Source: a virus
Strand: one strand, 5' to 3'
Length of the DNA stretch: 64,000 bases
Virus record (IMG/VR): IMGVR_UViG_3300024262_003767
Positions 7,839 through 23,243 of this stretch are shown here, one piece after another; position 1 is the first letter of the stretch, and every line of letters starts with the position of its first letter. Below the pieces are notes generated by a model. It did not search any database, was not told the DNA's origin, and saw only the letters and a program-made list of their open reading frames with translations. The position numbers and the translations under genes are program-made.

Positions 7839-8660
7839 TTAAGAAATGTTTTCAAGTTTTAATGCTCTGATTTGTTTTTTAGAAAAAATATTAGTTTTTG
7901 ACTTCTTTATTAAATGTGAAAATATTTTATTTTGTATTAATTTTTTCTTTACGGAAAAATCCGCATTTACTATTTTTTCTTCAAATTCAATTAAACATTC
8001 AGGCTCACGACCATCACCTAAATAAACTTTATCTCCTACTGTGTGAAACCAAAACCATTCTATTTTAATGTCATTTTCTTTAAACAATTTATCTACTTCT
8101 GAACTTAAATAATAATAAAAATATGTTAATAATTCAGTTAAAAATTCAGTTTCAGAAAATCCATCATTACTATTTAAATAATAATACCAAAAATTACTAG
8201 GTTCAACACCTAACTCAAGACAAAGATTATCAATTTTATCAATATTTTTGTTGGTTTTATTAAAAACATAGTCATTAAACAAACTTTTAAATGATTTAGT
8301 ATCTCCATTACCTTTATCACAATTACATTTTGAACACATTGTCTGATAATTGGTAGAAGTGTTTTTACCACCTTTAGATTTTGGTATGATGTGATCTTTC
8401 GTCATTAAAATTTCATCACCGTTTTCATTTACACCATACATATTGATGTGATATTTTTCAATTTCGGGTAAATGCTTCTCAATTGCTAAAAAAATTCCTT
8501 CAAGTCCACATTCAACACAGAATCTATTTTCTTGAAATAATTTGTATCGTTGTGAGGTTATCTTAACAGTAACCCCGTTAATTGTTCGGTATCTATTTGG
8601 TCCTACACTATCCTTTAGTTTTTTTAAATAACTTATATCTAATTTACTATGTCTTATCAT
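7839..8660 (-). mobile_element. HNH homing endonuclease
   Basis: HNH motif TKDHIIPKSKGGKNTSTNYQTMCSKCNCDKGN; Cys pairs CVECG; sits between conserved genes, typical of a free-standing HEG. Confidence 0.75.
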
Positions 8661-8675
8661 CTTTTTATTTAAAAA

Positions 8676-9188
8676 TTATTTCAGGTAAATAGGATCAACG
8701 TGATCAACTAACCATACACCATTTTCTGATTGATAAAATTTAATTTTATCAACAATCATTGGATAAGTATCAATTTTGAAGATATATGGAGTATCATTTT
8801 TACAATATCTATTTGCAACATCTAAAGCAGTATCATAATCAGCACTTAGATGTACATGATTTCTTTTCATTTTAGAAAGTCCATTTTTTCTAATTGATTT
8901 AACATTTCTAGATGCTGTGCCGTGATATAAAAATTTTGGTGGCATCTTTGATTTCAATTCAACATCAACTTTTAAAGAATGTCCTTGATTTGCTCTAATT
9001 TTAGTTTCATCTTCATTAAAACTAAATCTTTTCTTATCATTATTATCTACAATCCATTGTAAATCTTCAAATGATATATTAACTTTATTCAATAAATCAT
9101 CAACATCAACCCAACCATTTTTATCCATAGACAAATCTTCTGGGTTATGTCTTAATAAATAACTTATTTGTATTCCTTTATTTTTCAT
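8676..9188 (-). CDS. kptA: RNA 2'-phosphotransferase KptA/Tpt1
   Basis: Near-collinear with E. coli KptA: LLRHNPEDL, NGWVDVDDLL, RFSF, NQGHS, PPKFLYHGTASR, HVHLSAD, ENGVWL. Confidence 0.9.
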   Translation of the reverse strand: MKNKGIQISYLLRHNPEDLSMDKNGWVDVDDLLNKVNISFEDLQWIVDNNDKKRFSFNEDETKIRANQGHSLKVDVELKSKMPPKFLYHGTASRNVKSIRKNGLSKMKRNHVHLSADYDTALDVANRYCKNDTPYIFKIDTYPMIVDKIKFYQSENGVWLVDHVDPIYLK

Positions 9189-15604: not shown

Positions 15605-16657
15605 ATGAAACATATTACACCTTTTAAAATTTTTGAAAATATCTCATATGATAAATTAGTTCCAATAGCAACAAATGAAATTAATTGGGGTTGGGAAGAC
15701 GATTCTGTTCATATTAAAGCGACAGTATTTTTCGATCCAACTGGTTCAGGCGAATTATTTTTAAGTATAAGAAGAGTACACACAAAACATGGACTTGGTG
15801 CTGGCAAATTTCCAAGTGATGTAATATCTTACGAACCAATAGGAACAATTGATAAACCAGATTTAAGAAAAGTACAACAATTATTGAGTAAACATAAATA
15901 TGGAACTTCATCTCGTGCGGGTGGAGGTGGTTTCAAAAGACAGTGGACTGACAATAAAGGTGATAATGTAGCTCTTGGTAAAATTATAACTAATTCTAGA
16001 TATCTTAAAATGTCCAATTTAAAAAACAAATTAGCAAAAAAACATACACCAAAAACTGAGATAATTGAAGATATAAAGATTATGAAATATGGTAGAGGTT
16101 ATGTTGTTTATGGACAAGGTACAAAGGCTATTAAGGATAAATTAAAACAAATTGGTGCTAGATTTAATTTTAGATTAACACATCCTGTAACAAAAGAAAA
16201 ATTTGTAGGTTGGGTTATTTCACCAAGCAAATTAAATGATGTTAAACAACTAGCTGGGGTTAAAATTATAACAGAATCTTATGTTTCCCAAAATTTAAAA
16301 AATGATATAAAAGAAAATTTTGATGATGGCGAATTGGTTAGATTTTTTCCAAAAATATATGAAGAATTTTTTGATATTATAACTGAAGATGATGAATTGG
16401 ATTATTCTGATTCTGATGAAGATGATATAGAATTTGATTTTGCTGAAGCCGTCAAAATGTACATTATGGATAATTTTGATGAAACATTAGAAATTAATTT
16501 CTTAGAATCATATTTAAATGAAAAGGAATTTAGTTCACCTTCAAAAGATTATAGAGATCTAAGTGAAAATGCTAAAATTATTTATGATAATTTAGAACAA
16601 AGATTAGAAATAGTTTTTTGGACTGCGTTAGAAAATCAATTAATAAGTAGTTTATGA
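15605..16657 (+). CDS. hypothetical protein with acidic C-terminus
   Basis: 350-aa ORF; Gly-rich SSRAGGGGFKRQW; upstream TTTTAATATATAGA motif. Confidence 0.55.
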   Translation: MKHITPFKIFENISYDKLVPIATNEINWGWEDDSVHIKATVFFDPTGSGELFLSIRRVHTKHGLGAGKFPSDVISYEPIGTIDKPDLRKVQQLLSKHKYGTSSRAGGGGFKRQWTDNKGDNVALGKIITNSRYLKMSNLKNKLAKKHTPKTEIIEDIKIMKYGRGYVVYGQGTKAIKDKLKQIGARFNFRLTHPVTKEKFVGWVISPSKLNDVKQLAGVKIITESYVSQNLKNDIKENFDDGELVRFFPKIYEEFFDIITEDDELDYSDSDEDDIEFDFAEAVKMYIMDNFDETLEINFLESYLNEKEFSSPSKDYRDLSENAKIIYDNLEQRLEIVFWTALENQLISSL

Positions 16658-16986
16658 AATATTTAAAAGTTTACGAAGAACACACCAAAAAGTATATGCC
16701 TATCTGTATATGGATTGGAGAAGGTGAGGATAGTTGGGATAGTTATTTTTCTGATGATATTGAATTTGATTTTGATGAGGCTCAAACTCGGTTATCAACT
16801 ATGAGAAGCGATTGGGAAAAGAATCAACCTGATGTGTATGATCATTATAAATTATCATTTATGGTTATACCATATTACAAATATGTTGCTATTCAAGATA
16901 TCGAAAAAGGTAGTGAGATAATGGAGTTATTAAATGATAATGAAAGATTAAATTTATTGATACAGTCAAAAAAATATAATTTATGA
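16654..16986 (+). CDS. hypothetical acidic protein
   Basis: ATGA overlaps with flanking genes. Confidence 0.5.
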   Translation: MKYLKVYEEHTKKYMPICIWIGEGEDSWDSYFSDDIEFDFDEAQTRLSTMRSDWEKNQPDVYDHYKLSFMVIPYYKYVAIQDIEKGSEIMELLNDNERLNLLIQSKKYNL

Positions 16987-17408
16987 AAAAATTTGAAGAA
17001 TTTAAAATTAATGAATCTTCAACACTCAAATACTCTGTTGTTGGAAGATTTATGACTAATAATGTTAAAAAATGGTTTTTTTCTGAGAATGACAATTTTG
17101 CTGAACTTAATTATTGGAACAAGAATCCAGATTATGCTTTTGAATTTAAACTCAAAAATTTCGATAAAGATATAATATCAAGGGTTGAAAAAATGAGAGA
17201 TTTTTTTAACTTAAAAAGAGATTGGAAAATAGTAGCAATAACATCAAGTAGAGTAGGGTTTTATTTTCATATAAAATCTGATGATATGCCTATAATCTTA
17301 GAAAGATTAAAAGAAATAGATCCTGAAAATATTAAAACAATTGATAGTCTTTTAAAAGGTTTAGAACAACGAAAAATATTAAATACTGCTAATAAATATA
17401 ATTTATAA
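16983..17408 (+). CDS. hypothetical protein
   Basis: 141-aa ORF, translationally coupled. Confidence 0.5.
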   Translation: MKKFEEFKINESSTLKYSVVGRFMTNNVKKWFFSENDNFAELNYWNKNPDYAFEFKLKNFDKDIISRVEKMRDFFNLKRDWKIVAITSSRVGFYFHIKSDDMPIILERLKEIDPENIKTIDSLLKGLEQRKILNTANKYNL

Positions 17409-17500
17409 TTATAAACTTTTTGACTAAATTTTTTTATATATAGACAAGTTTTAAAAGAATTAATTGGAGGTAATTTACTTACCTTTAAAAAAAAATTTTT

Positions 17501-18367
17501 ATGACGAAAGTAGATTACAAAACGAATTATATTGAACCTCAAGATTTTAACCTCTTAATTTCAAAATTAAGAGGATTTTTTATGGAAAATGGTTTCCTTG
17601 AGACATTTCCACAACCTAAATTAACAATACTTGCAGCGTGTGAAGACCCAAAAACTGTTAGAAGTTTTGAATTTGGTGGTGAAAAATTTCCACTACCCCA
17701 AACAAATCAGATGAACTTGGAAGAAGAACTTATGGTAGACTCAACAATAGATGGACTTTTTTGCTTAACAGCATCATATAGAGATGAACCAAACCCTATT
17801 GAAGGTCGCCACATGAAATCATTTCCAATGTTTGAAGCAGAACATAAAGGGGATTTTTCAAATCTAATACAAACAATAAGTGAGTGTTGTGTGTATTTAG
17901 GTTTAGTCGAAAAGGTTGCCGATATCCCAATATTCACATATGATGAACTTTGTGAACATTATAAAGTTGAAGATTTAACTTCTACTGAAGAAACATTGAT
18001 GTGTAAAGAATATGGTGATGTTGTCGCTATTACTATGTTTCCTGATAGGACAGATCCATTTTTCAACATGCGTGTTGATGGTTGTAACTTAAAAGGTGAA
18101 AAATTGTCCAACAAAGTAGATTTTATTGTTTGTGGACAGGAAACATTTGGTTGTGCTGAAAGAGAGATAGACATAAACTTAATGAGGAATAACTTCCACA
18201 CAATTAGTAATGGCGGGTATTCTGGACTATTATTTGAAAAATTTGGTAAGGAAAGAGTTGAAAAGGAATTGGAAGACTTTTTGAAATTGCCAATGATTGA
18301 AAGGTGGGGATTTGGTTGTGGTTTGACTAGATTATCAAGAGCAATGAAAAAGAAAGGATTAATTTAA
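17501..18367 (+). CDS. class II aminoacyl-tRNA-synthetase-like catalytic core protein (EpmA/GenX- or AsnA-like paralog)
   Basis: LRGFFMENGFLETFPQP resembles EpmA/LysRS motif 1 (IRRFFADRGVLEVETP); C-terminal ERWGFGCGLTRLSRAM resembles class II motif 3 (GxGxGxDRL); only 288 aa, so no anticodon-binding domain. Confidence 0.55.
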   Translation: MTKVDYKTNYIEPQDFNLLISKLRGFFMENGFLETFPQPKLTILAACEDPKTVRSFEFGGEKFPLPQTNQMNLEEELMVDSTIDGLFCLTASYRDEPNPIEGRHMKSFPMFEAEHKGDFSNLIQTISECCVYLGLVEKVADIPIFTYDELCEHYKVEDLTSTEETLMCKEYGDVVAITMFPDRTDPFFNMRVDGCNLKGEKLSNKVDFIVCGQETFGCAEREIDINLMRNNFHTISNGGYSGLLFEKFGKERVEKELEDFLKLPMIERWGFGCGLTRLSRAMKKKGLI

Positions 18368-18386
18368 TTAATCCTTTCTTTTTTTA
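18352..18386. terminator. bidirectional hairpin terminator between convergent genes
   Basis: gaaaggattaatttaattaatcctttc perfect inverted repeat followed by a T-run; overlaps both gene ends. Confidence 0.55.
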
Positions 18387-19362
18387 GTAAAATATAATTT
18401 TTACTGATGGAATTATTTATTATTCCTTCATAACTTATTCTATTTGAACCTATCAAATTTAATTTGATATTAAGTTCATTAAAATATTTTCTCATTTCAT
18501 TTCTACCTTGAAATTCTTCAATTTTATCATCTGGACATTTTATTGTATATAACATCAATTTTCTATGTGACATTTGTGATGATTTATTTGTTCTTTTATT
18601 TACACTCCAACTCATATTTCGATAATCATTAGATTTATTATATAGATTATATCCTTTAGATCCATTTTTATATAATATTGCTGCTGGGCTTATTTTGTGT
18701 TTACCTGTTAATTTTTTTTCTTCATTCAATTCTCTAAAATACCCATGTACATTTTTTGAACCACTCATTTTTATTATATCTCCTTGTGGTGTCTTTATTT
18801 CATAAATTACTGATAGTGTTTTTTTTATTTTGTCAATAGTAATGCTAGTTTTATTTTTTTTGTAATTGGCGTTTTTGTGTGTCTCATAATACCTTTTTAA
18901 AGAGTCTCCAATTTTTTTCAATTTAGTTGCACTTCGTTTACTTTCTTGAAATTTTTTTGATATTTTTAACGATGCTGATATATTCTTTTTATGTTTATCT
19001 GTAAAAATTACACCACTTTCACCTTCACCACCATCACTTAAATTTATTAATGATCCTAATTTTAAATCTTTCCTTCCTATCTTTTTTATTGTAAGTTTTT
19101 CTAAATTAAATGATATATTTTCCTTTAAATTTTCATACAATTTAATAATTATTGGTTCTACCCCACTCTCTCTAATTTTTTTAATTTTATAGTACCGTAT
19201 TTTACTTTTTTTTATAACACTTTCATATAAGTGTACTTTAAATCTATCACCCTTACCTTTACCGACATAAAATGGTTCATGATCAAAAATTAAATCATCA
19301 AAAATATATTTACCAGGTTTTCTTGGATCTAAATAAACATAAACATAAAATTCATCACACAT
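18364..19362 (-). mobile_element. GIY-YIG homing endonuclease
   Basis: N-terminal YVYVYLDPRKPGKYIFDDLIFDHEPFYVGKGKGDRF (GIY...YVG motifs); long K-rich DNA-binding tail. Confidence 0.75.
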
Positions 19363-20113: not shown

Positions 20114-20431
20114 TTAATTTTTTTCAACTAAAATAATATCTTTTTTTGAAAATCTAATAATGAAAAATTTACTGAGAATATTTTTTAGTTCATTATCCAA
20201 ATTTGAATCTGGTAGGGTTTCAAAATCAAAAATTCGTAATTGCTTTCCAAATATCTTATTTTCTAAAATTAATTTAAATAGAAATTCTCCCGCATTTAAA
20301 ATTTCACCTTTAATATCCAATTCAATATCATTGGTAGTTTCACCATTAATTTTAATCTGCCCATTTTTAAACCGTTGTCTTATATCATTCGAAAAAAGCC
20401 CCATCGATTTAAGCACTTCTGAAATTTTCAT
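20114..20431 (-). CDS. hypothetical protein
   Basis: 105-aa ORF. Confidence 0.45.
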   Translation of the reverse strand: MKISEVLKSMGLFSNDIRQRFKNGQIKINGETTNDIELDIKGEILNAGEFLFKLILENKIFGKQLRIFDFETLPDSNLDNELKNILSKFFIIRFSKKDIILVEKN

Positions 20432-20790: not shown

Positions 20791-21897
20791 CTATTTACCA
20801 AATCTACTTTTTGTTGAATTGTAAATTTGTAAACTCTCATCTGATGTTAAATTTCTATCATATATCATCAATTTACCAATAGAACCATTGCCGAAAGTAA
20901 AACTTCCATATTGGTTGAATTGTATCTGAGTCCATGATGATAATGCAACATTTTTAAATTCTAACATATGCCATTCACCATCTCGGATATAATCATATAT
21001 GTTTGGTGTATCAACCGTGTCCATATAAAAATCAGGAGTACCACAATTACCATAATATTCTTTGTTAGATGAACTATATGCACCAAGGTAAAATGCTGTC
21101 GTTTGTGCACCTAAAAATAATGCCTGTGTGTCTGTTGTTTTTATCCAAAATATAACCGTACAAGTATTTGAGTTTGTTATTGTGTCTGTACAGGTTATAC
21201 CACCATCAGTTAAATTAAATATTTCTTCAAAACTGTCATGAACTATACCAGAACCGTCAAGAGAGAAAGATAAGTTTCTATTCACATCATACCAAGTAGT
21301 GTTGGTTCGTTGAGGTCCAGTAAAATTTGTCATATAAGATTTCTGTTCTATTTGTGGCGCATAAAAAGCATATTTATTTCCAGTTGAACCACCATAAGAA
21401 CTAATATACATTGAAGTCACATCTGTAGCAGGAGTTGTAAAAGTTTTAGATATTCTTATCCATCTATTTGAGGGCCAGGTGTTCCACGATGAACTTCCTT
21501 TATATTCTAAATATCCTTGATTTGTGTTGTGTGGTTGAGGTCTACAATACGGTGAACTTCCACCAATTATAGGTTCATTTTGCCAGAACCAAACAGATGC
21601 GGTATATTCTGTAGATGTTGTGACTGCGGCATTTCCACATCCCATATGGAGACTACCTGTTGTTGTAACTAGTTCAGATAATACACTATAACCTGGAAAA
21701 GGAGGATCAATAGTCAAATCGTTTGAACTCCAAGTAGCAGCACCAGAATTAACCCAACTAGATCTCCAACTTAATGAATTGTCAGATTGATATGATAGAT
21801 TAGTAGTAGATTCACCAGGAAATGAATTCAAATCTTTGGCATCTAAATTTATTAAAAGTCCATCTGTTACTATTTTTGGTCCTATTGATACTCCCAT
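20791..21897 (-). CDS. LamG/ConA-like lectin-domain protein, paralog A (putative structural/receptor-binding)
   Basis: N-terminal MGVSIGPKIVTDGLLINLDAKD shared with the upstream paralog; C-terminal LMIYDRNLTSDESLQIYNSTKSRFGK matches the LamG C-terminal motif (iYnraLs..Ei..ly). Confidence 0.6.
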   Translation of the reverse strand: MGVSIGPKIVTDGLLINLDAKDLNSFPGESTTNLSYQSDNSLSWRSSWVNSGAATWSSNDLTIDPPFPGYSVLSELVTTTGSLHMGCGNAAVTTSTEYTASVWFWQNEPIIGGSSPYCRPQPHNTNQGYLEYKGSSSWNTWPSNRWIRISKTFTTPATDVTSMYISSYGGSTGNKYAFYAPQIEQKSYMTNFTGPQRTNTTWYDVNRNLSFSLDGSGIVHDSFEEIFNLTDGGITCTDTITNSNTCTVIFWIKTTDTQALFLGAQTTAFYLGAYSSSNKEYYGNCGTPDFYMDTVDTPNIYDYIRDGEWHMLEFKNVALSSWTQIQFNQYGSFTFGNGSIGKLMIYDRNLTSDESLQIYNSTKSRFGK

Positions 21898-23243
21898 TAT
21901 TTACCAAATTTACTTTTTGTTGAATTATAATTTTGAATGGCTTCTGACTCTAAAATTGCTCTATTGTAATATTTAAAAATTGATATATATCCGTCAAAAT
22001 AAGATCCATATGATGCGTGAGCAGTTCCATACCCTTTACCAATACTACTAATAGTCACATTATTGGTTGTGAATGATGGAGAATACACTCCGATATATTC
22101 CCCATCAAAATAAAGAGTTTGTGCTCCATTAGTTGATGTTATTATCACATGGTGCCAGTTTAAATCGGCAACAACACCAGTATTAAAAACTCCCCAATAT
22201 TCTTCATTAATATCTCTTTCACCTCTAAATTGAAATGTATTTGAAACTATTGTATAATCAAGAAGTTGCATATAACCAGCAACACCATTCAATAATCGTA
22301 ATGCGTTATTAGTATTTGTTACATCTTGTGAAGTTAATGTGTTTCGTTTAACCCAAAATTCAACAGTACAAGAATTGAGATCTATTATTGTTGTGTTTAT
22401 ATCAACTTTATTGCCGCTTGTTACACCACCACTAAAATATATTTGTTTGTTACTATCATAGGACATATTTGTAATGTCTCCATTATTGTTACCTATTAAA
22501 TCCACCCAACCTTTTGTTGGTGATACACCCAATAAATCTCTAATATAAGGTTCTGAACCATCACACTTATCCATTCTTGGGTCATAAAATTGTAATTGAG
22601 TTGTACCATCAGTACAATAGTAATGATAAGTTCTATGATATGATGTTGTTGTTGATGGGTTCCACTTACAATCAACACCTATATTACAACCATTAATATC
22701 ACCAATTCTACCACTAGTTGAATACACACCCGTATCATTGTGTCTAGTTGTACCGTCATATGTATGGTAAAAACAATGTCCAACATATAAATACCATTGA
22801 TCTTTTATTAAAGATGATGTTGCTGAACAATTCCAATATGGATTACCACCTTCAGAACCATCTAATTTTACAACAGTAGGACCTAATCCAAAATAAAAAG
22901 TGCCACCACCAGAATCAGAAATTCGTTTTACCCAAATGGAAAATCTATAAGTATAATTAACATCTACACTATAAGATGATGTATTCCAACCACCATCTGC
23001 GTCACTAATTGTGTTTCCACTTGTCTTCCATACAACTGCCGATTCCCCCATAGGGTTTATATCTACAATTCTACTATTCTCACTAGTTGCACCATTTTGA
23101 CTAAATCCAGTCACACCACCTGTTCCAACAGTCCAATTATCCATATTAATATCAGAATGTCTAACATAAGATCTACTATTTGTTGCATCTAAACATAAAA
23201 CTAAACCGTCTGTTACTATTTTAGGACCAACAGTTACACCCAT
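21897..23243 (-). CDS. LamG/ConA-like lectin-domain protein, paralog B
   Basis: N-terminal MGVTVGPKIVTDGLVLCLDATNS; C-terminal YYNRAILESEAIQNYNSTKSKFGK; Gly/Thr/Ser/Asn-rich beta-sandwich-like composition. Confidence 0.6.
   Translation of the reverse strand: MGVTVGPKIVTDGLVLCLDATNSRSYVRHSDINMDNWTVGTGGVTGFSQNGATSENSRIVDINPMGESAVVWKTSGNTISDADGGWNTSSYSVDVNYTYRFSIWVKRISDSGGGTFYFGLGPTVVKLDGSEGGNPYWNCSATSSLIKDQWYLYVGHCFYHTYDGTTRHNDTGVYSTSGRIGDINGCNIGVDCKWNPSTTTSYHRTYHYYCTDGTTQLQFYDPRMDKCDGSEPYIRDLLGVSPTKGWVDLIGNNNGDITNMSYDSNKQIYFSGGVTSGNKVDINTTIIDLNSCTVEFWVKRNTLTSQDVTNTNNALRLLNGVAGYMQLLDYTIVSNTFQFRGERDINEEYWGVFNTGVVADLNWHHVIITSTNGAQTLYFDGEYIGVYSPSFTTNNVTISSIGKGYGTAHASYGSYFDGYISIFKYYNRAILESEAIQNYNSTKSKFGK

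Follow-up and report, generated by a model that had tools for sequence, protein, structure and literature searches.

A stand-alone AsnRS-type synthetase core in phages, giant viruses and cells, and its genomic links to pyrimidine genes and a partner tRNA(GUU)

The X gene and its catalytic core

We analyzed a 64,000 nucleotide stretch of viral DNA, IMG/VR record IMGVR_UViG_3300024262_003767 (the whole stretch is called the window below), and in particular an open reading frame (ORF) at positions 17501 to 18367 of its + strand that we call X. ORF X runs uninterrupted from an ATG to a stop codon and encodes 288 amino acids (aa), and the opposite strand carries stop codons throughout this interval. 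A reading of the sequence alone had taken the product for a stand-alone class II aminoacyl-tRNA synthetase (aaRS) catalytic core whose motifs are intact and which lacks an anticodon-binding domain, and the ORF itself, its Pfam match, its predicted structure and the ORFs upstream all bear this out. Stand-alone aaRS-core paralogs are a known kind of protein, and among them X represents a new, uncharacterised family; a literature search found no paper on this family, its genomic context associations are, as far as could be found, so far undescribed, and it probably marks an undescribed enzyme step.

The X protein matches Pfam PF00152 (tRNA-synt_2, the class II D/K/N core) with an E value of 4.3e-16 and 59.3 bits; since the score lies well above the cut-off of 25, the match is far beyond chance. 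It spans X residues 19-282, which correspond to profile positions 28-292 of 308. X also matches PHROG 29758 (function unknown) with E = 1.5e-68, and an AlphaFold2 model built with 38 homologues (predicted local distance difference test, pLDDT, 92.5; predicted template modelling score, pTM, 0.90) has the class II antiparallel-sheet fold. The two peptides that had been quoted as resembling motifs 1 and 3, LRGFFMENGFLETFPQP and ERWGFGCGLTRLSRAM, are present as residues 23-39 and 267-282, respectively. The gene and its recognizable parts are as follows.

17501-18367, + strand: ORF X, stand-alone class IIb (AsnRS-type) aaRS catalytic core, from Pfam, PHROG, the AlphaFold2 model and fold matches
17555-17620, + strand: motif 1 region, dimer-interface helix and strand (residues 19-40, ISKLRGFFMENGFLETFPQPK), aligned to AsnRS motif 1
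17633-17650, + strand: signature AACEDP (residues 45-50), aligned to AsnRS 'TQVEGGSTL', invariant in 209 sequences
17699-17722, + strand: QTNQMNLE (residues 67-74), the AsnRS-type 'QSSQLYLE' amino-acid-binding segment, from phmmer and hmmsearch alignments to AsnRS 3m4p and 2xgt and AspRS 9m5m
17774-17842, + strand: motif 2 (residues 92-114, SYRDEPNPIEGRHMKSFPMFEAE), aligned to AsnRS 'SYRAE...RH...EAE', invariant
18113-18163, + strand: KVDFIVCGQETFGCAER (residues 205-221), aligned to AsnRS 'VDLLMPGVGEIVGGSMR' and AspRS 'YDFFMRGEEILSGSQR', invariant
18302-18331, + strand: motif 3, RWGFGCGLTR (residues 268-277), with ATP-binding R277; R268, G270, G272, G274 and R277 invariant

In 209 unique family sequences, drawn from all contexts, conservation reaches at least 97% at about 70 positions and is complete at the active-site residues; E48, Q67, Q70, L73, E74, R94, E96, R103, H104, E112, E114, D207, E214, R221 and R277 never vary. 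The family signature, at least 97% conserved and complete in the window protein, is AACEDP, QT(N/G)QM.LE, SYR.E....GRH, PF(F/W)NM, K.D...G.ET.G.A.R and R.G.G.G..R. We read this invariance of the active site over sequences from every context as the mark of one conserved activity. Conservation of at least 97% is also seen in motif 1, for R24, F26, F27, E34 and Q38. In the alignment E48 takes the place of the Glu in the AsnRS 'EGG' motif, which in class IIb aaRSs binds the alpha-amino group of the substrate, and its neighbor C47 is invariant and specific to this family. In the 67-74 segment T68 is invariant as well, and at positions 73-74 AspRS has K-Q instead of L-E. Motif 2 carries the ATP-binding R94, E96, R103/H104, E112 and E114, and residues 205-221 include D207, the Mg-site E214, the side-chain-binding R221 and K205, which is both invariant and family-specific. 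X has both elements of an AsnRS-type amino-acid pocket, QxxQxxLE and GxxxR (Q67, Q70, L73, E74 and R221).

Taken together, the alignments and the predicted structure show that X has kept the adenylate-forming active site of class IIb enzymes, with a pocket like that of AsnRS. Because all residues that bind ATP-Mg and the alpha-amino acid are kept and the side-chain pocket is of the AsnRS type, X can be expected to convert asparagine, or an aspartate derivative close to it, to the acyl-adenylate. Loss of the ATP-binding arginines would mark a degenerate pseudo-enzyme; all three (R94, R103 and R277) are invariant, so the enzyme looks active; no unrelated fold gives a better match, the best fold matches being to AsnRS. 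The first residue of X lies about 18 residues ahead of motif 1, without an N-terminal oligonucleotide/oligosaccharide-binding (OB) fold, and Pfam finds nothing in the three small upstream ORFs (15605-17408); thus X has no anticodon-binding domain, either fused or split. There is also no RNA-binding appendage on X, and the protein is very acidic (isoelectric point, pI, 4.85; net charge about -15; tRNA-linked family members have a median pI of 4.76). Judged from its sequence, X looks like a catalytically competent descendant of AsnRS that lost its anticodon-binding domain. A role in anti-phage defence was considered and dropped, since a PADLOC search gave no defence match for X.

Spread of the family and its relation to known enzymes

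A word-indexed search found 640 homologues of X, nearly all of about 290 aa, and an exhaustive search of 1.84 billion representatives gave 982 matches, 221 of them at E < 1e-30; nearly all of the 982 representatives are 270-340 aa long. The family comprises at least 221 clusters at 50% identity. Its cellular carriers (at least 376 species-representative genomes, 44-51% identity) include the candidate phyla radiation (CPR/Patescibacteria), DPANN archaea, Coxiellaceae, Rickettsiales, Chlamydiae, Dependentiae and Pasteurella/Phocoenobacter atlantica (WP_306354537), and several of the cellular copies lie on megabase chromosomes. The sequenced phages that have X are only the Prochlorococcus phages P-SSM2, P-SSM5 and P-SSM7, in which it is annotated as 'tRNA ligase', and three uncultured huge phages, the best match of which is 66% identical to the window protein; a giant-virus member was found in a Pithovirus. 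Public names of family members are 'amino acid--tRNA ligase-related protein', 'hypothetical protein' and, wrongly, 'transposase'; the last of these is a clear GenBank mis-annotation of UCE28179.1 (Coatesbacteria) and of a Woesearchaeota member (P0116).

By both sequence and fold the nearest relative of X is AsnRS, to which it is 25% identical, followed by the archaeal asparagine synthetase AS-AR (17%), GenX (14%) and AsnA (13%); in the fold ranking GenX stands below AsnRS, AS-AR and AspRS. X nevertheless misses the NCBIfam equivalog models for AsnRS, AspRS and AS-AR by hundreds of bits (24.8 bits against a cut-off of 414 for AsnRS model NF003037; 13.4 bits against 389 for AS-AR model NF005055, where only residues 69-133 align), and by these models it is a member of none of the three. 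The closest known system is therefore the catalytic domain of AsnRS (P. horikoshii 1x54, human 8tc8, B. malayi 2xti), from which X differs in lacking the N-terminal OB-fold anticodon-binding domain and the hinge, in its family-specific invariants (AACEDP with C47, N189-M190, K205, T215 and A219), and in a genomic context of PyrD/E/F or a dedicated tRNA. AS-AR (Pyrococcus abyssi 3p8t, P. furiosus 1nnh) shares the stand-alone class IIb core architecture with X but is more distant from it than AsnRS is, and we know of no link between the AS-AR family and pyr genes or tRNA. The suggestion that X is AsnA-like did not hold either; E. coli AsnA (11as) is further from X than AsnRS, and neither Pfam nor NCBIfam gives an AsnA match at threshold. 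Membership of X in the AsnA or AS-AR families was dropped because of these absent or far too low model scores. The idea of an amino acid:carrier-protein ligase fails at the core itself, as X does not have the class IIa SerRS-type core of those enzymes; no carrier-protein family occurs among the Pfam-annotated neighbors of X, where no search aimed at carrier proteins was made.

Truncated or dedicated synthetase paralogs with partners of their own have precedents in GluQRS (YadB), HisZ and VlmL. GluQRS acts on Q34 of tRNA-Asp, and HisZ, a HisRS paralog, activates and regulates the short form of HisG, which is a phosphoribosyltransferase (PRT). VlmL makes Ser-tRNA for a biosynthetic pathway (PMC5370406).

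Genomic contexts of X

Neighborhoods were compared in 80 IMG/VR loci found through the X protein and in 80 cellular loci; loci are designated by L numbers below. Two gene fusions join X directly to late pyrimidine enzymes. In one (P0122) PyrD is fused to X, in seven contigs, beside a divergent fusion of PRT with orotidine monophosphate decarboxylase (PyrE-PyrF); in the other (P0137) X is fused to PyrF and is followed by PRT and PyrD. The order X-PyrE-PyrF, with or without a following PEP carboxykinase (PEPCK) gene, is found in 11 Coxiellaceae/Gammaproteobacteria loci, and X-PyrF-small PRT-PyrD in Actinobacillus, Phocoenobacter, a Rhodospirillaceae and a Rickettsiales genome. Further cellular arrangements are PyrF-X-PyrD-PyrE, X-PyrD-like-PyrE-PyrF, X-PyrD, PyrD-X and Dus-X-PyrE, and at some loci PyrD is the only such partner (L247, L261). 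The P. atlantica cluster has the genes PyrD-X-PyrF-PRT. Phage loci show X-tRNA-PyrF-small PRT and PyrF-PEPCK-HAD-small PRT-X-tRNA-...-IMPDH/GMP reductase, and in the cyanophage records pyrE homologues occur only in P-SSM2, P-SSM5 and P-SSM7, the carriers of X. X is fused to such enzymes in two independent cases and occurs with them in at least five operon layouts, in bacteria, phages and giant-virus-like contigs; as there is hardly another explanation for this, we infer that X is functionally coupled to PyrD, PyrE and PyrF. The annotated conserved neighbors in the pyr-linked loci, to which this comparison was limited, include no CarAB, PyrB or PyrC.

The small PRT of these clusters, about 130 aa long, has a phosphoribosyl pyrophosphate-binding motif (VDDV(L/F)TTGGSM), and its phage and bacterial copies are 35-39% identical (E about 1e-27). 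Pfam scarcely recognizes this protein, which might be a minimal orotate phosphoribosyltransferase. All its copies are in X/PyrD/PyrF clusters, at the following places.

Phage loci: L013 3812-4240 (- strand); L020 4141-4539 (- strand); L022 4114-4506 (- strand); L031; L048; L050 2550-2954 (+ strand)
Bacterial loci: L238 9481-9885; L250 9425-9904; L279 9971-10378; L289 3827-4237

An ATP-dependent PEP carboxykinase recurs with X-PyrE-PyrF in Coxiellaceae/Gammaproteobacteria (L220, L227, L233, L236, L244, L245, L268 and L288), and in viral locus L050 (888-2105) a PEP carboxykinase gene is part of a phage operon with X. This recurrence hints that the X-pyr module also includes a step that supplies oxaloacetate/aspartate or CO2.

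Some cellular lineages have a different setting. The gene block SerRS-FtsQ-Dus-X-DnaX is conserved across several CPR classes (L214, L216, L218, L219, L229, L231, L232, L235, L249, L262, L265, L280, L286 and L292), and in DPANN archaea the neighbors of X include TyrRS-like and LigT-like proteins, recognized by sequence motifs only. The Dus-family flavoenzyme that adjoins X shares its fold clan with dihydroorotate dehydrogenase, and L226 shows the arrangement Dus-X-PyrE.

The second recurrent partner is a tRNA. In P-SSM2, P-SSM5 and P-SSM7 a tRNA of 86-88 nt with anticodon GUU begins about 10 nt past the stop codon of X, and X and this special tRNA co-occur in exactly the same cultured phages. 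The 252-kb P-SSM2 genome has a single tRNA (PMC8643167), which ARAGORN places beside X. The record NC_006883.2 (P-SSM2, locus L001) annotates a tRNA-Asn at 164094-164179, within PSSM2_205; ARAGORN, Rfam and blastn all find it at 162083-162168, right after PSSM2_198 (the X gene), where no feature is annotated, and the coordinates in NC_006883.2 appear to have been carried over from GU071092.1.

Among the IMG/VR loci, 24 of the 80 have a tRNA(GUU) just 3' of X on the same strand. Eighteen distinct partner tRNAs align well, with U8, G9, G18, G19, a canonical T-loop and G73 common to all, a first pair that is U1-A72 (or A1-U72), a D-stem of 3 bp and a variable region of about 5 to 28 nt; the D-arm, as we read it, resembles that of tRNA-Leu. 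Anticodon bases G34-U35-U36 are invariant, and positions 32, 33, 37 and 38 vary, 37 being often U or G. The cloverleaf is well kept (98% of cells paired), and 17 of its 20 pairs show compensatory changes. When IMG/VR was scanned in reverse for the D-arm plus GUY anticodon pattern, X was immediately upstream of 57 of the 58 GUU-type tRNAs that were testable by having at least 1.3 kb of upstream sequence, mostly at a gap of 8-16 nt, and the X proteins of these cassettes fall into 47 groups at 90% identity. In T4-like cyanophages the X-tRNA cassette has ordinary core-gene neighbors and lies at varied genomic places, and thus it moves as a unit; a consistent metabolic neighbor was sought there and discarded, as only core phage genes, judged by sequence resemblance, adjoin it. 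No tRNA-Asn lies beside X in the 80 cellular loci, and no partner tRNA was found within 20 kb on either side of X in the huge phages LR756501 and LR756508, the scan being limited to these flanks of the 735-kb and 484-kb genomes. We regard the tRNA linkage and the pyrimidine linkage as two strong and independent context signals.

A sibling class of tRNA-like RNAs has the acceptor and D-arm design of the partner tRNA and a strictly conserved anticodon loop, YUGUCUC (GUC, U37, C38). These RNAs occur in L094, L100, L105, L108, L126 and about 35 other IMG/VR loci, and also in L008 (3880-3978), L040 (2830-2937) and L194; they have very long variable insertions past the anticodon arm, often > 60 nt and with a 'GATAAA' motif, and ARAGORN misses them. 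At first sight they could have been alternative partners of X, an idea that was set aside because they rarely adjoin it (1 of 31 pattern-scan loci, and L008 and L040).

The window has a GC content of 26.9%, and its closest relatives are huge uncultured phages. ARAGORN (whole window) and Rfam find no tRNA in it, and the covariance model of the partner tRNA, run with filters off, gives a best E of 0.32, inside coding sequence. The other features near X, and some farther from it, are these.

17409-17500, no strand: AT-rich intergenic spacer upstream of X, with no tRNA or tRNA-like element by ARAGORN, Rfam or the covariance model
18364-19362, - strand: GIY-YIG homing-endonuclease-like gene, convergent with X and overlapping it by 4 nt (PF22945 LEM-3_GIY-YIG, E = 1e-8)
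8676-9188, - strand: Tpt1/KptA RNA 2'-phosphotransferase (PF01885, E = 7e-47)
7839-8660, - strand: HNH endonuclease gene adjoining the Tpt1/KptA gene
20114-20431, - strand: 105-aa protein with a faint match to the S4-like TyrRS C-terminal RNA-binding domain (PF22421, E = 0.004, below cut-off)
20791-21897 and 21897-23243, both - strand: tandem paralogs of 368 and 448 aa with a common N-terminus, MGV(S/T)(I/V)GPKIVTDGL, and C-terminus, YNSTKS(R/K)FGK

The GIY-YIG gene sits in the slot that the partner tRNA holds in other phages. The same GIY-YIG/X arrangement is found in the nearest viral relatives, L007, L009 (two copies), L010 and L012 (cluster c11), and this recurrence points to X, or to the slot behind it, as a homing site in phages of the window's clade. 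L008, of the same clade (61% identity), has a GUC-type RNA in that slot instead. Tpt1/KptA is an RNA-repair or tRNA-splicing-type enzyme, here in a phage window without tRNA genes. The 105-aa protein lies 1.7 kb downstream of X. The tandem paralogs, the 368-aa member of which has no Pfam match, may be fibre or receptor-binding proteins.

Possible roles of X

In the pyr-linked loci the enzymes around X would act in the order PyrD, then PyrE (or the small PRT), then PyrF, and the function missing upstream of PyrD is the production of dihydroorotate, which we therefore assign, provisionally, to X as the entry step of the module. In the reading that we rank first, which is a serious possibility if still somewhat short of probable, X would be an adenylating enzyme of the Asn/Asp type, dependent on ATP, whose product dihydroorotate goes to PyrD, PyrE and PyrF. 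Formally, dihydroorotate is Asn + CO2 - H2O, with the alpha-N and amide N of Asn becoming N1 and N3 and CO2 becoming C2. Two routes are chemically plausible: (a) Asn and ATP would give Asn-AMP, CO2 on the alpha-amine would give an N-carboxyanhydride, and attack by the side-chain amide would close the ring to dihydroorotate; or (b) the beta-carboxylate of N-carbamoyl-aspartate would be adenylated in the manner of AsnA, and ring closure would follow. The AsnRS-like L73-E74 and the invariant alpha-amine binders would favor Asn as the substrate. The product would be that of PyrC (dihydroorotase), and the likeness is one of function only; PyrC, a zinc amidohydrolase, works without ATP, and its fold and chemistry are unrelated to those of the class II aaRS-type X.

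The phage cassettes, in which X and the dedicated tRNA(GUU) would be co-transcribed (cyanophages and other viral contigs), make it probable that X still docks the acceptor end of tRNA-Asn. X might either charge this tRNA or draw Asn from Asn-tRNA made by the non-discriminating AspRS and GatCAB of the host, and we speculate that the tRNA is a scaffold for a tRNA-dependent supply of Asn to X, which would unify the two context signals. The fullest form of this proposal, which goes further and which we consider rather doubtful, makes X an AsnRS-derived founding enzyme that converts Asn, ATP and CO2 to dihydroorotate and so bypasses carbamoyl-phosphate synthetase, aspartate transcarbamoylase and dihydroorotase, with Asn taken up free or from Asn-tRNA that host non-discriminating AspRS/GatCAB make on a non-translational tRNA(GUU); phages, giant viruses and reduced-genome symbionts would thereby escape the feedback control of the early pathway or replace those steps.

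Several observations weigh against a dihydroorotate-forming X. We know of no enzymatic precedent for the proposed reaction, and the invariant alpha-amine-binding residues disfavor an N-carbamoylated substrate, that is, route (b). About 60 of the 80 cellular loci and most viral loci have no pyr neighbors of X, and in CPR and DPANN the neighbors are translation or RNA genes (SerRS and Dus by Pfam), which we take as weak evidence either way. PyrD, PyrE, PyrF, the small PRT and the partner tRNA are all absent from the 64-kb window, so its X is a 'solo' copy, the partners of which would lie elsewhere in a large genome or be supplied by the host. Finally, the tight tRNA linkage is more simply explained by aminoacylation.

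This last point leads to a reading that is possible but on balance improbable, in which X is a minimalist AsnRS whose core alone activates Asn and esterifies tRNA-Asn by way of its acceptor end (U1-A72, G73); phages would bring a matched non-canonical tRNA(GUU) that host enzymes handle poorly, and solo copies would act on the tRNA-Asn of the host. AsnRS is the closest relative of X, and the intact active site and AsnRS-type pocket fit this well. The special tRNA is hardly ever without X directly upstream, X is often without the tRNA, and this asymmetry is expected if the tRNA depends on X. U1-A72, G73 and the GUU anticodon are identity elements of bacterial tRNA-Asn, and the partner tRNAs keep them (or A1-U72) while their stems co-vary. 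The exact co-occurrence in cultured phages and the informational neighbors in CPR and DPANN point the same way, and to our knowledge many X-bearing lineages (Chlamydiae, Rickettsiales, most archaea) have no canonical AsnRS. A minimalist AsnRS leaves unexplained, however, the PyrD and PyrF fusions and the repeated PyrD/PyrE/PyrF operons; the very acidic protein without an RNA-binding appendage is not what it predicts, nor is a partner with a GUC (Asp) anticodon in three loci where the pocket is unchanged, nor the lack of a neighboring tRNA-Asn in the cellular loci. The X of Pasteurellaceae, which have a canonical AsnRS, lies inside a pyr cluster.

It is unlikely that X is an asparagine synthetase like AsnA or AS-AR, one that adenylates the beta-carboxylate of Asp and amidates it with ammonia, thus supplying free Asn for an AT-rich phage with an Asn-rich proteome while the neighboring tRNA-Asn only boosts decoding. 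Synthesis of an amide, as had been suggested from the sequence, is mechanistically possible by way of the acyl-adenylate; the genomic context points instead to pyrimidine-ring synthesis and tRNA-Asn and not to free asparagine. Sequence identities and model scores place X nearer to AsnRS (above), fusion to PyrD or PyrF and a place in pyr operons would make no sense for a supplier of free Asn, and the fact that the odd tRNA is hardly ever found without X is left unexplained. We give still less credence to X as a non-catalytic, allosteric partner in the manner of HisZ, which would bind Asn, Asp or ATP as its signal and so stimulate PyrE or the small PRT, since not one of the catalytic residues, the Mg-site Glu and the two ATP arginines among them, varies in the 209 sequences, as is typical of an active enzyme; moreover, the X fusions are to PyrD and PyrF and not to PRT, and some loci pair X with PyrD only. 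The other proposal of the sequence-only reading, an EpmA/GenX-like ligase that moves an activated amino acid onto elongation factor P (EF-P) or another protein lysine, has next to no likelihood and was rejected. EpmA (PoxA/GenX) is a LysRS-core paralog that beta-lysylates EF-P through a Lys-type pocket, whereas the pocket of X is on the Asp/Asn branch (G-x-x-x-R with R221); GenX also ranks low in both identity and fold, tblastn finds no EF-P in the window, 2 of the 80 cellular loci have EF-P within 8 kb, which is the chance level, and the pyr and tRNA contexts would go unexplained. The remainder of the probability belongs to something not yet imagined.

The stand-alone synthetase cores AsnA, AS-AR, EpmA, HisZ and GluQRS each revealed unexpected chemistry, and X adds to them a large, extremely conserved family of no assigned function that extends from phages to giant viruses, CPR, DPANN and intracellular bacteria. 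Either of the two leading readings is directly testable with a soluble protein of 288 aa and an RNA of 86 nt. If X is an AsnRS reduced to its core and paired with a non-canonical tRNA of its own, the two would be a natural minimal synthetase/tRNA pair, which would bear on tRNA identity, on phage takeover of translation and on the engineering of orthogonal pairs. If X supplies dihydroorotate, it would bring a new reaction into a textbook pathway and would be a new auxiliary metabolic gene in marine cyanophages; it could also explain what use organisms and viruses make of PyrD, PyrE and PyrF when these late enzymes are the only ones they have.

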